A DNA stretch of 64,000 bases from Tagaea sp. (lineage in GTDB: Bacteria; Pseudomonadota; Alphaproteobacteria; CACIAM-22H2). Shown here piece by piece: positions 20,885-28,833 of this stretch. The notes under the pieces were generated by a model, which saw only the letters and a list, made by a program, of their open reading frames with translations, was not told the origin of the DNA and did no database searches. Position numbers and translations under genes: made by a program. How positions within the stretch are numbered: position 1 is the stretch's first letter; each line of letters opens with the position of its first letter. The stretch is taken from contig CBDIIB010000004.1 of NCBI GenBank assembly GCA_965279525.1, positions 288,001 to 352,000 of the forward strand, written 5' to 3'.

Positions 20885-21424
20885 ATGAATATCGGCGAAA
20901 TCGCGGTGGCCGCTGGCGTATCGGCGAAGATGATTCGCTACTACGAGTCGATCGACCTGATCAAGGCACCTGTCCGAACCGAAGGTGGCTATCGGGTATA
21001 TATGCCGGACGATGTTCATACGCTCCGTTTCATCGGGCGGGCACGTGACCTTGGCTTTTCGATTGAGGAAATATCGAGCTTGCTCGCTCTTTGGCACGAT
21101 CGCAGTAGGGCGAGTTCCGACGTCAAACGGATTGCCGTTGAGAAGTTGGCGACGCTGGAGGCGAAGATCCTGGAGCTTAACGCGATGGCAGCAACGCTCA
21201 GGCATCTTGCAGAAAACTGTCACGGCGACCATCGGCCCGATTGCCCCATCCTGAGTGATCTCGCGGAGCCAAAGGTTGCTTCGACGCCCGGGGGCCGTGC
21301 CGGCAATCTTGCAAACCTCAAAGGGTTCGGGGGACGCCGGACCGCAAAAGCCGATTGCGGTCATGAGGCCTGCCGGGACACCGCGCCCAAAAAGCGGGCA
21401 TCCGTATCCGGAAAATTTCGTTGA
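20885..21424 (+). CDS. cueR: Cu(I)/Ag(I)/Au(I)-responsive MerR regulator with C-terminal extension
   Basis: MNIGE..GVSAKMIRYYE, SRASSDVK, metal loop CHGDHRPDCPIL; GGAGG RBS. Confidence 0.92.
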   Translation: MNIGEIAVAAGVSAKMIRYYESIDLIKAPVRTEGGYRVYMPDDVHTLRFIGRARDLGFSIEEISSLLALWHDRSRASSDVKRIAVEKLATLEAKILELNAMAATLRHLAENCHGDHRPDCPILSDLAEPKVASTPGGRAGNLANLKGFGGRRTAKADCGHEACRDTAPKKRASVSGKFR

Positions 21425-21451
21425 CCTTCCAACGTTGGCAACTTGCATCGT
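21421..21451 (+). promoter_or_regulatory. CueR/GolS-type promoter for copZ and downstream genes
   Basis: -35 TTGACC, ACCTTCC-AACGTTG-GCAACTT operator, 19-bp spacer, -10 CATCGT. Confidence 0.85.
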
Positions 21452-21507
21452 GATTGCCTTGCTCGAACCTGCGTGAGCGAGGTCTGAACCTCCCAAGGAG
21501 AAGTCGT

Positions 21508-21708
21508 ATGGCTACGGTACTGAAAGTCGAAAAGATGCACTGCCAGAGCTGCGCCAAGCGCGTGACCAACGCCATCATGGGCGTGGCGCCCCATTCGAAG
21601 ATCGACATCGACATCGAGGGCCGGCGCGTCACGATCGACGGCGTCGGCAATCTCGCGGAGGTCACCAAGGCTCTCGAGGACGCAGGCTACCCGGCCCAGA
21701 ACGCCTGA
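21508..21708 (+). CDS. copZ: HMA copper chaperone (CopZ/GolB-like)
   Basis: AAGGAG RBS; KMHCQSC, ALEDAGYP; 66 aa. Confidence 0.9.
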   Translation: MATVLKVEKMHCQSCAKRVTNAIMGVAPHSKIDIDIEGRRVTIDGVGNLAEVTKALEDAGYPAQNA

Positions 21709-21713
21709 GCGCG

Positions 21714-25879: not shown

Positions 25880-27066
25880 TGGAGAAGAAGCGTTCCGAAC
25901 GCGACGGCATCGACACGATCGCGACCCATGCCGGACGGGATCCGCCCGCTCAGGCCGGGGCCGTCAACCCGCCGATCTTTCATGCATCGACGATACTCTA
26001 CGAGACGATGGATGCGTACGATCGCCGTCGCGACCTGTTTTTCGATGGAGTGGGATATGGCCTCTACAATACTCCGTCGACTATAGCGCTGGCGCGCGCA
26101 GTTGCAGCGCTCGAGAATGCCGAGCACTGCGTCATCGTAAGCTCCGGGACCGCAGCCATCGCGACGGCGCTTTCGGCGTTCGTAGGGCACGGGGCTCATG
26201 TGTTGATCCCGGATAATGTCTACGGCGCGACGCGCACGTTCTGCGACGAAGTTCTCGGGCGCTTCGGCGTCTCCACGACCAGCTATGACCCCGAGATCGG
26301 TGCCGGAATATCAGATCTGATTCGGGAAGAAACAACGATTGTCTTTCTCGAATCGCCCGGATCGCTGACATTCGAGGTACAGGATGTGCCAGCCATCGCC
26401 CGTGCCGCCCGCGCCAAGGGTGCCGTCAGCGTGCTCGACGGAACTTGGGCATCGCCGGTTTTCATGCAAGCTCTGGATCTCGGCGTCGACATCGCGCTGC
26501 AATCGGGGACCAAGTATCTATCGGGACATTCAGATGTGATGTTTGGAACACTTTCGACACGGAACGAGGGAGTGTTCCGGCGTCTCAAGGAGACGGCTGG
26601 GCGCTTCGGAAATCGACTGGGCGGCGAGGACTGTTATCTCGCCCTACGAGGCCTGCGCACCCTGCCTGTCCGGATGAAGGCCCATCAAGCCGCCGGCCTT
26701 GAACTCGCGCGTCGGGTGGCGGGGCACCCGGCGGTTCGCCGTGTCTTGCATCCCGGTCTCGAGGGTGCTGCCGGCCACCAGTTTTGGAAGCGCGACTTCT
26801 CGGGAGCATCAGGGCTGTTCGGCGCTGTTTTGCAAACGAAGGATCGTGCCCGCGTCGCGATCGCCCTCGAGTCGAGCCGACTGTTCAAGATGGGTTCGAG
26901 CTGGGGCGGCTTTGAAAGCCTGATCGTTCCAGCTTATCCTGCCATGCAGCGCAAGACGACGCGCTGGGATACCGAGGGGTTTGTCGTACGGATTCACGCA
27001 GGCCTCGAGACGATCGAGGACCTATGGTCAGATCTGGATGATGTTCTGGGCAGGACCATGGGATAG
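25879..27066 (+). CDS. metC: Cystathionine beta-lyase (PLP-dependent C-S lyase)
   Basis: VNPPIFHASTIL, FLESPGSLTFEVQD, SGTKYLSGHSD (PLP Lys), LRGLRTL, SWGGFESL; translationally coupled to aapP. Confidence 0.92.
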   Translation: MEKKRSERDGIDTIATHAGRDPPAQAGAVNPPIFHASTILYETMDAYDRRRDLFFDGVGYGLYNTPSTIALARAVAALENAEHCVIVSSGTAAIATALSAFVGHGAHVLIPDNVYGATRTFCDEVLGRFGVSTTSYDPEIGAGISDLIREETTIVFLESPGSLTFEVQDVPAIARAARAKGAVSVLDGTWASPVFMQALDLGVDIALQSGTKYLSGHSDVMFGTLSTRNEGVFRRLKETAGRFGNRLGGEDCYLALRGLRTLPVRMKAHQAAGLELARRVAGHPAVRRVLHPGLEGAAGHQFWKRDFSGASGLFGAVLQTKDRARVAIALESSRLFKMGSSWGGFESLIVPAYPAMQRKTTRWDTEGFVVRIHAGLETIEDLWSDLDDVLGRTMG

Positions 27067-27103
27067 ACGGCTCGCTCACGAGCAGGAGTTAGAACAAATT
27101 GCC

Positions 27104-28162
27104 ATGACGTCCGACTCTTCAAGCGAGACAGATTTCGTCTCCGGACTGCCGCTCGCACTGACGATGGGCGAGCCCGGCGGCGTCGGGCCGGAACTGGCGC
27201 TCGATGCTTGGCTACGCTTGAAAGAGTCCGGCCCAACATTCGTCCTTTTCGCAGATCCGGATCTGACGGCGACGGTCGCCCGATATCTCGGGCGTGACGT
27301 CCCGGTTGCCGTAGTCGGAAGCGCGGCGGAAGCCGCAAGTCAATTTCGGAGGGTATTGCCGGTCATCCCGGTCAAGCTGGCCAAGCCCGTTGAACCCGGA
27401 AGGCCGGATCCAGCCAATGCATCTGCGGTCATCCAATCAATCGAACTTGCGGTCGTCGCGGCAAGGCGCGGCGAGGTCGGGGCTGTCGTTACGAATCCGA
27501 TTCAGAAGGCCGCCCTTTACGCGGCTGGCTTCCGGTACCCCGGACATACAGAATTCCTTGGCGAGATCGCCGGTACCGGGATTGTTCCGGTGATGATGCT
27601 TGCGGGTCCGGATCTTCGGGTCGTGCCAGTGACGATCCATGTATCGCTTCGCGATGCGCTTGCCGCTTTGAATACGGATGCCATTGTCGAAACGGCGCAG
27701 ACCGTCGCCAGTGCGCTAAGGCGGGACTTCGGGATCGATGCTCCCCGGATCGCGGTCGCCGGCGTGAACCCGCATGCCGGCGAAGGCGGTGCCATGGGCG
27801 ACGACGACATCCGGATTGTCGCTCCGGCTGTTGAGCGGCTCCGGAAAGCAGGCGTTTCGGTCGCTGGGCCGATGTCGCCGGACACGATGTTCACGGCACG
27901 CGCACGGCAGACATATGACGTTGCGATCTGCATGTACCACGATCAGGCGCTAATCCCGATCAAGACGCTCGATGTCGACGGCGGCGTCAACGTCACGCTC
28001 GGCCTTTCCATCGTGCGAACCTCGCCGGATCATGGAACGGCACTGGATATCGCCGGCAAGGGTCTTGCCGATGTCGGCAGCCTTGTCGCGGCAATCCGGA
28101 TGGCGGATATGATCATGCGCAATAGATCGAAGGAACGGCAAGTTACCCAGGTTCGGCGTTAA
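27104..28162 (+). CDS. pdxA: 4-hydroxythreonine-4-phosphate dehydrogenase
   Basis: LTMGEPGGVGPE, PGHTEFL, VTIHVSL, NPHAGE, MYHDQALIPIK, RTSPDHGTA. Confidence 0.96.
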   Translation: MTSDSSSETDFVSGLPLALTMGEPGGVGPELALDAWLRLKESGPTFVLFADPDLTATVARYLGRDVPVAVVGSAAEAASQFRRVLPVIPVKLAKPVEPGRPDPANASAVIQSIELAVVAARRGEVGAVVTNPIQKAALYAAGFRYPGHTEFLGEIAGTGIVPVMMLAGPDLRVVPVTIHVSLRDALAALNTDAIVETAQTVASALRRDFGIDAPRIAVAGVNPHAGEGGAMGDDDIRIVAPAVERLRKAGVSVAGPMSPDTMFTARARQTYDVAICMYHDQALIPIKTLDVDGGVNVTLGLSIVRTSPDHGTALDIAGKGLADVGSLVAAIRMADMIMRNRSKERQVTQVRR

Positions 28163-28833
28163 ATTTGAACACGTCACCACGATCCGCAACGCACGTGGCG
28201 GAACCCATCCGGATCCGGTTTCCGCCGCAAGCTCGTTCTGGCAGCCGGGGCCGATGGGATCACGGCGAATCTTCGCGAAGATCGCCGCCATATCCGCGAC
28301 GACGAAACGCGCTGCCTGCATTACAAGATGGCGGCGACAGCCGAGATGGCATAGATCGCGCTGGAACTCCGGCCGCATGCCTGCCGCATTGTGCCTGAGC
28401 GGCGCGGCGAGATCACGACGGAGGGCGGACTCGACGTTGCCGACAATGAGGAGGCTCCGACCGGATACATCGACAGGCTCGCGGATGCTGGCATCCGGGT
28501 TTCCTTGTTTATCGACCCGACCGGCGCCAACTCGATGGCGCGAAGCGGGTCGCCGCACCCTTCGTGGAGCTTCACACCGGCGCCTATGCGCATTCAAGGG
28601 GACAAGTGGCGATGCACGGGCTACAGCGTGTGGCGACTGCGGCTTTGCATGCATCCGATATCGGCCTCGAGTGCCATGCTGGCCACGGACTCGATTTTGA
28701 CAATGTCGGCCGCGTCGCCGCAATCCCGCAGCTTGTCGAACTCGACATCGGCTATTTTGGTGTCGGCGAAGGCATATTCGGCGTACTGACCGGCACGGTC
28801 AGGACGATGCGCCCTCTGATGGACCGATCCCGG
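28143..28833 (+). pseudogene. pdxJ: Frameshifted/deleted second pdxJ
   Basis: Fragments in different frames: [92 protein letters not shown]. Confidence 0.9.

Follow-up and report, generated by a model that had tools for sequence, protein, structure and literature searches.

The 64,000-nucleotide (nt) stretch of the Tagaea sp. genome analyzed here (GCA_965279525.1, contig CBDIIB010000004.1, positions 288,001 to 352,000; hereafter the window) carries, on a copper island, a cassette in which the metallochaperone gene copZ stands behind a promoter of the type recognized by the copper sensor CueR and is followed on the same strand by an amino-acid importer operon (aapJQMP), a metC-like lyase gene, pdxA and a decayed pdxJ. 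This CueR-linked cassette is real, conserved and apparently undescribed, a variant of the copZ-led composite operon built from known families, and its importer belongs to a separate AapJ clade that is found almost exclusively beside copper genes. Our best explanation, still a tentative one, is that two copper-defence modules stand in tandem behind a single CueR promoter and that copper induces the import of a sulfur ligand.

The sensor gene cueR (20885-21424, + strand; TIGR02044, 171 bits against a cut-off of 147) encodes a putative Cu(I)-responsive MerR-family activator with a two-cysteine metal loop, Cys112-Cys120 (CHGDHRPDC at residue 112). Its basic C-terminal tail of about 50 residues extends past the family model and is also present in the same-genus genomes G007 and G011. 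The promoter ahead of copZ (21421-21451, +) consists of TTGACC (21421-21426), a 19-nt spacer and CATCGT (21446-21451), and its -35 box overlaps the cueR stop codon. It agrees in 11 of 14 positions with the CueR dyad consensus, which we take to be ACCTTCC-N7-GGAAGGT-like with the -35 and -10 boxes 19 nt apart. Two such sites occur on the island, the other one preceding copA (18329-18359, +; 12 of 14), and six in the whole genome, while across 200 Markov-simulated islands the number of sites averaged 0.005 and never exceeded 1; a generic sigma-70 scan does not see the copZ promoter because it takes 16-18-nt spacers only. The copZ product (21508-21708, +; 66 amino acids, MHCQSC) falls below the NCBIfam cut-off with an E value of 8e-12. 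A gap of 72 nt separates copZ from aapJ (21781-22815, +), followed on the same strand by the permease genes aapQ (about 22877-24085, start codon uncertain) and aapM (24082-25128), the ATP-binding cassette (ABC) ATPase gene aapP (25130-25879), the metC-like gene (25879-27066), pdxA (27104-28162) and the pdxJ pseudogene (28142-28842). The gap holds a hairpin with a 9-bp stem and no U-tract (21714-21739, +; z -4.1), probably an mRNA-stability element. Three related loci have a hairpin at the equivalent position, with z of -1.9 to -4.3, and aapQ is also preceded by a strong hairpin without a U-tract. The promoter, the U-less hairpin and the gene series on an island had all been proposed in a preliminary description made from the DNA letters, and each of them was confirmed.

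The link to copper, which the preliminary description had drawn from this one stretch, likewise proved real and wider than one genome. When gene neighbourhoods were tallied for 24 loci of the AapJ clade, the window included, copZ, copA or cueR was present in 23 of them, as against one of 146 ordinary AapJ loci (one of 86 for loci of at least 8 kb) among the matches listed. A stricter copper test was passed by 13 of 15 clade loci, the two that failed it lay on short contigs where copZ subsequently turned up, and in a test set in advance all three newly fetched clade loci were copper-linked, one genome of that set having been left unscored. A same-strand CueR box with copZ lies directly upstream in 16 of the 24 loci, and one further locus has copZ with the box cut off. 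This wiring occurs in three separate branches and in three gene orders: copZ-aapJQMP with or without metC, copZ-aapJQM followed by a threonine synthase-like (ThrC-like) gene (G080), and copZ-metC-aapJQMP (G1397, whose AapJ shares 90% identity with a protein whose tree sister belongs to the LysR type discussed below). The clade is rare in the genomes searched, with one case in 400 of a class-level sample and two in 400 of an order-level sample besides the window genome. Scanning metagenomes with the clade alignment returned ordinary AapJ among the matches listed, and a viral scan returned ordinary AapJ only; both scans serve as a negative control and not as a measure of the range of the clade. 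A 4.4-kb contig titled Planctomycetota (L073) carries cueR-copZ-aapJ with an AapJ of 97% identity, the result of either a binning error or a recent transfer.

Gene order and the fold of AapJ place the importer in the family of AapJQMP, the general L-amino-acid permease, whose genes have the same order and often stand beside metC. The window protein nevertheless departs from ordinary AapJ in its pocket, where the usual motifs (the arginine of xRF, and TTD) give way to PLEFRAAF and SNERGG; across the clade the corresponding markers are PLEF[KR]xAF and NERGG. The first altered motif is present in 98 of the 120 best homologues of the window AapJ, and in a quick tree the clade is monophyletic, comprising 38 of 59 rows with full support (Shimodaira-Hasegawa-like approximate likelihood ratio test, SH-aLRT, 100). 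In the host, core aapJQMP runs divergent from core metC, with genes for a cysteine synthase and a mercaptopyruvate sulfurtransferase nearby, and the island aap and metC products share 42-60% identity with these core copies (47-52% for AapJ). In comparisons with G007 and G011, where synonymous sites are close to saturation, the ratio of nonsynonymous to synonymous substitution rates (dN/dS) was 0.02-0.03 in aapJ and 0.05-0.11 in the remaining aap genes; metC gave 0.07 against G011 only, the comparison with G007 being saturated. As judged from these values, the aap and metC genes of the cassette are under strong purifying selection.

A structure model of the window AapJ (mean predicted local distance difference test score, pLDDT, 81) matched best to 4z9n, an AapJ titled as glutathione-bound (Z 34.5, root-mean-square deviation 3.5, 309 aligned residues, 53% identity), the next structures scoring Z 23.5 or less; an ESM Atlas search gave generic SBP_bac_3 clusters only. 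The protein keeps a Thr-x4-Arg pattern and acidic residues which we take to hold the alpha-amino acid, while the arginine shared by ordinary AapJ and glutamate/aspartate binders (the 'ERF' motif), presumably a contact for acidic side chains, is replaced throughout the clade. Because the former are kept and the latter is replaced, AapJ probably binds an amino acid with another kind of side chain. A role of AapJ as a methionine- or histidine-rich copper sponge was considered and found unsupported, since the protein has 8 Met and no His compared with 6-8 Met in the host copies.

Ordinary Aap is of broad specificity, and the importer could accordingly serve as a nutritional bypass, bringing in histidine, branched-chain amino acids, glutamate or methionine when copper blocks their synthesis or raises the demand for them. 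Such a role would fit the partly Met-rich proteins of the island (up to 10% Met) and the accessible text of a transposon sequencing (Tn-seq) study, in which histidine and B6 synthesis are required under copper and an overproduced ABC binding protein suppresses copper sensitivity (PMC13001215). The clade, however, has lost the 'ERF' arginine of ordinary AapJ, the host already owns a core aapJQMP, and the accompanying lyase suits methionine synthesis poorly (see below) in a unit with no other met gene, so that we consider this bypass rather unlikely.

The MetC-like protein is a pyridoxal 5'-phosphate (PLP)-dependent enzyme that passes the MetC family model (TIGR01324, 405 bits against a cut-off of 366). 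Its catalytic set is kept (the PLP lysine K212, plus Y60, Y115, D187, W342 and R371), and equivalents of E. coli Tyr56, Tyr111, Trp340 and Arg372 are retained. In contrast to E. coli MetC, it has Leu62 in place of Arg58, a residue that, in the available text of PMC5025676, contacts the PLP phosphate as well as cystathionine's distal carboxylate; the Arg58 and Arg59 positions are both replaced (YGLYN). Arg58 is retained in the core MetC of the host, and the window enzyme appears as an accessory to the importer. Loss of Arg58 was rejected as a unique marker, since the residue also varies in other alphaproteobacterial MetC proteins and is missing from 12 of the 21 metC genes adjoining ordinary aap loci (best match per locus), and for the same reason it leans only weakly away from methionine synthesis. 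Methionine supply, offered in the preliminary description as an alternative function, is to this extent weakened. Gamma-lyase models gave 174-216 bits against cut-offs of 440-634, which assigns the predicted enzyme to the beta-lyase family and not to the gamma-lyases reported in sulfide biomineralisation.

All accessory enzymes seen inside the clade clusters depend on PLP: a MetC-like one occurs in 10 of 24 loci (one of them broken) and a ThrC-like one in two; metC is absent from nine fully visible clusters and five are incomplete. The ThrC-like gene ends its cluster in L236 (6036-7223, -) and L097 (10150-11376, +), and its product lies far under the threonine-synthase cut-offs where scored; the G080 cluster has no aapP. 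Within a CueR-wired unit metC occurs in four loci and is missing from 8 of the 12 that are fully visible, which makes lyase-made sulfide unlikely as the core function. By these patterns the conserved core is the importer clade, with the lyase as an optional part.

The preliminary description had read the stretch as a single cassette in which imported cysteine or cystine is cleaved to H2S, which precipitates copper, silver or gold as sulfide, PdxA and PdxJ providing the cofactor of the lyase. The four CueR-wired metC genes with kept catalytic residues are in line with this, the missing Arg58 would fit a substrate that, like cysteine, has no distal carboxylate, and a host MetC could substitute where the cluster has none. 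Cysteine-degrading lyases have also been tied to metal-sulfide formation (PMC8779671, in part): the cystathionine gamma-lyase smCSE is, like the window enzyme, a Cys/Met-family PLP lyase, able to free H2S from cysteine, but it belongs to another subfamily, and the accessible part of that review describes no link to a metal-sensor operon. The frequent absence of metC, the low gamma-lyase scores and the commonness of Arg58 loss elsewhere all count against sulfide production, as do the separate distribution of the B6 genes and the dead state of the adjacent pdxJ described below, and we regard it as quite unlikely. It differs from the explanation we favour mainly in the product and the centrality of the lyase, and the gene patterns say that the lyase is not central.

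The intact pdxA (PRK05312, 472 against a cut-off of 378) encodes a protein that keeps the His and Asp motifs which we take to bind metal and substrate. The adjoining pdxJ has lost its start codon, an in-frame stretch of 24 nt and single nucleotides at two sites, each of which shifts the frame, and it contains a TAG. Assembly errors were rejected as the source of these lesions, which contigs from all four sequencing runs examined, belonging to three studies, show with 0-1 differences. An intact pdxJ lies 21 kb away from this pseudogene on the same island (6420-7160, +), in agreement with what had first been described, and pdxH is in the host. Just upstream of the intact pdxJ, an open reading frame (ORF) at about 5021-6175 (+) gave no Pfam or NCBIfam match and has a counterpart of 81% identity in G011; it shows tyrosine-recombinase-like motifs by eye and may be the mover of pdxJ. 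That the host has copies of its own holds for the aap and metC genes but fails for pdxA: the island gene is the only canonical pdxA found in the genome, being the only one above a family cut-off, and the intact island pdxJ is the only one found. A second PdxA-like host gene scores below all seven models and sits among genes of tripartite ATP-independent periplasmic (TRAP) transport, the PdxS route was not found in the host genome, and three chromosomal sites holding pdxJ or pdxA-pdxJ in relatives are empty here.

Among 20 same-genus genomes, copZ-aapJQMP-metC occurs in two, G007 and G011, with 75% nucleotide identity and a two-component pair directly after metC. A search for pdxA came up empty in both genomes, which carry two intact pdxJ genes apiece; G011 is a single closed contig. 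Conversely, in the regions fetched, copper islands of G001, G009, G015 and G018 carry pdxA-pdxJ but neither aap nor metC. G001 and G015 share the order CueR-like box (10 and 9 of 14 positions), copZ, pdxA, pdxJ, two-component pair, while in G009 and G018 pdxA-pdxJ comes after a two-component system. As aap-metC occurs without pdxA in relatives and pdxA-pdxJ without aap, the window represents the union of two independent modules, aap(-metC) and pdxA-pdxJ, rather than the single cassette first proposed; pdxA abuts aap-metC in only one of the 24 clade loci, the window itself. The simplest history would be an ancestor with both modules, where the pdxJ next to pdxA became dispensable through a second copy on the island.

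A copper-island pdxJ was found in six of the 20 same-genus relatives and is the sole pdxJ found in three, and neither pdxA nor pdxJ was found in the near-complete genome G019; the genus seems to lose and regain these genes at several sites. Copper-island copies do not form one clade in a PdxJ tree of low support, and for this reason no single origin is claimed. Beyond the genus, 5 of 39 plasmid records with pdxJ were examined, mostly smaller replicons; two of the five have it among cueR and copper genes and three show no copper context. In a Mesorhizobium plasmid the pdxA frame ends at 262 amino acids, and in a Geminicoccaceae plasmid (L263, 3418-7729) a cas3-annotated gene overlaps the start of pdxA-pdxJ, with a heavy-metal ATPase gene and cueR nearby. 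The enzymes are those of the deoxyxylulose 5-phosphate (DXP)-dependent B6 pathway; what differs here is that they are island-borne, in some genomes with a CueR-like box ahead of them, and are the sole copies found in the host. In the accessible text of PMC13001215, pdxJ, pdxA and pdxH as well as histidine synthesis are needed under copper by an alphaproteobacterium according to Tn-seq, the only paper on a B6-copper link in the literature searched; in PMC4557348, as far as its available text goes, Fur and not copper controls pdxA/J, with no bearing on the copper question, and bioRxiv 10.1101/2024.04.12.589155 was likewise of no relevance to it.

Taken as two modules, the cassette may work as follows. 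Cu(I)-bound CueR would turn on copZ and then, by read-through, the specialised AapJQMP importer, which would take up an alpha-amino-acid ligand, most likely a sulfur-containing one (cystine, a cysteine conjugate or a glutathione-type thiol). The imported ligand would replenish the thiols that buffer Cu(I) in the cytoplasm and may affect copper tolerance, and the optional MetC-like lyase may cleave the imported compound, or its excess, to a thiol, a persulfide or some sulfide. In the second module, pdxA, formerly with pdxJ, would sustain B6 synthesis under copper for the whole cell and not for this lyase specifically.

Several observations weigh against this explanation. The hairpin after copZ could cut read-through, and the pocket of the clade departs from the glutathione-bound 4z9n at exactly its clade-defining positions. 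In G009 and G018 a close copA-cueR-copZ set lacks aap behind it. At least eight of the loci represent one Bosea-type element, which leaves about 10 independent cases and not 24, and in G946, a member of a basal subclade, about 9 kb of surrounding sequence holds no copper gene. Six of the 24 loci are headed by a divergent LysR gene or fragment instead of a CueR box, and these may answer to the ligand and merely neighbour copper genes.

The LysR-headed loci suggest another role, the salvage or clearance of a copper-generated or copper-bound compound (a cystine or S-sulfocysteine type of product, or an amino acid that chelates metal), controlled first by LysR and later by CueR. Catabolic clusters are laid out in this way, with LysR ahead of metC or aapJ and the transporter genes after these, all six such loci neighbour copper genes, the model nearest to their LysR is that of E. 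coli LysR, though below its cut-off, and a ThrC-like PLP enzyme is present in two loci. With no candidate compound identified and many loci lacking any enzyme, we hold clearance to be unlikely, if worth weighing. It is also conceivable that the genes are passengers, a catabolic cluster riding on metal islands by chance; the island is a mosaic with an IS481 element and a decaying pdxJ, and G946 has the clade outside a copper context. The contrast between clade and ordinary loci in copper linkage, the direct CueR-box fusion in three branches and G080, where the CueR-copZ fusion stands in 20 kb that showed no further copper gene and no mobile gene, make chance association very improbable.

The nearest precedent for a tandem arrangement under one CueR promoter is the copZ-prxgrx-gorB operon of Bordetella pertussis, which likewise has copZ first behind a CueR box with metabolic-defence genes close downstream and, in the available text of PMC7794356, is CueR-activated, co-transcribed and copper-induced. 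Its cargo differs, consisting of peroxide/glutathione redox enzymes in place of an ABC importer, a PLP lyase and B6 genes. An ABC importer of a buffering thiol is known from Streptococcus pyogenes, where glutathione imported by GshT-TcyBC buffers copper (PMC7733945, in part); there, uptake was not copper-induced, nor was it in the earlier transcriptomes cited in the accessible text, whereas the window importer is apparently wired to a copper sensor. A full-text literature search, with supplements and most subscription papers outside it, turned up no account of a CueR-linked aap clade and none of pdxA-pdxJ carried as cargo by copper islands.

The host is an alphaproteobacterium with a genome of 4.35 Mb (97% complete). 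The island, 48 kb long, occupies window positions 1 to about 46100 and was inserted at tRNA-Gln, the end of which is copied as a 50/51-nt repeat on both flanks; the right repeat lies inside tRNA-Gln(CTG) (46052-46102, -), the left one 1.9 kb before the window, and an integrase-like ORF adjoins the left island end. GC content is about 60% in the island and 66% in the host. At third codon positions it is 0.67-0.74 in the cassette genes, which is island-like, compared with 0.81-0.93 in host genes, and therefore no cassette gene is a recent host capture. The metal cargo includes two copper ATPases, cusAB, two multicopper oxidases, SCO, PCuAC and a Zn/Cd ATPase. The copper-exporting P1B ATPase gene copA (18382-20862, +) scores above the TIGR01511 cut-off, and an OmpR/EnvZ-type two-component pair (28955-31011, +) heads a block with cytochrome c, a tolC-like gene and a multicopper oxidase gene. 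The cusAB block (12518-17986) stands left of copA in the window and right of cueO in G011, which indicates that the island has been rearranged blockwise. Close to the left end are a gene for a protein with a Lon-like AAA domain (37-1428, +) and an IS481 element (2293-3234, -).

Known CueR responses are copper export, chaperoning or oxidation. Going beyond the window, and with still more reserve than for the cassette itself, we suggest that the CueR regulon may have a metabolic arm, made up of an ABC-importer clade, several rewirings from LysR to CueR, a retuned beta-lyase and a sink of thiol, persulfide or sulfide that takes up Cu(I), and in parallel a copper-inducible island synthesis of B6 on which hosts would depend. 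Small-molecule copper buffering is thought, according to the accessible text of PMC7733945, not to be transcriptionally induced; an importer behind a CueR box would, if true, show directly that uptake of a buffer can be regulated, and the AapJ binding protein offers a simple assay for the molecule that bacteria take up under copper stress. The recurrent pdxA-pdxJ cargo is independent genomic support for a link between B6 and copper. Hosts without pdxA and pdxJ of their own would depend on the island copies and so, if true, would lock the island in, and an island that holds the only canonical pdxA and the only intact pdxJ found in its host suggests why such a metal island is hard to lose.

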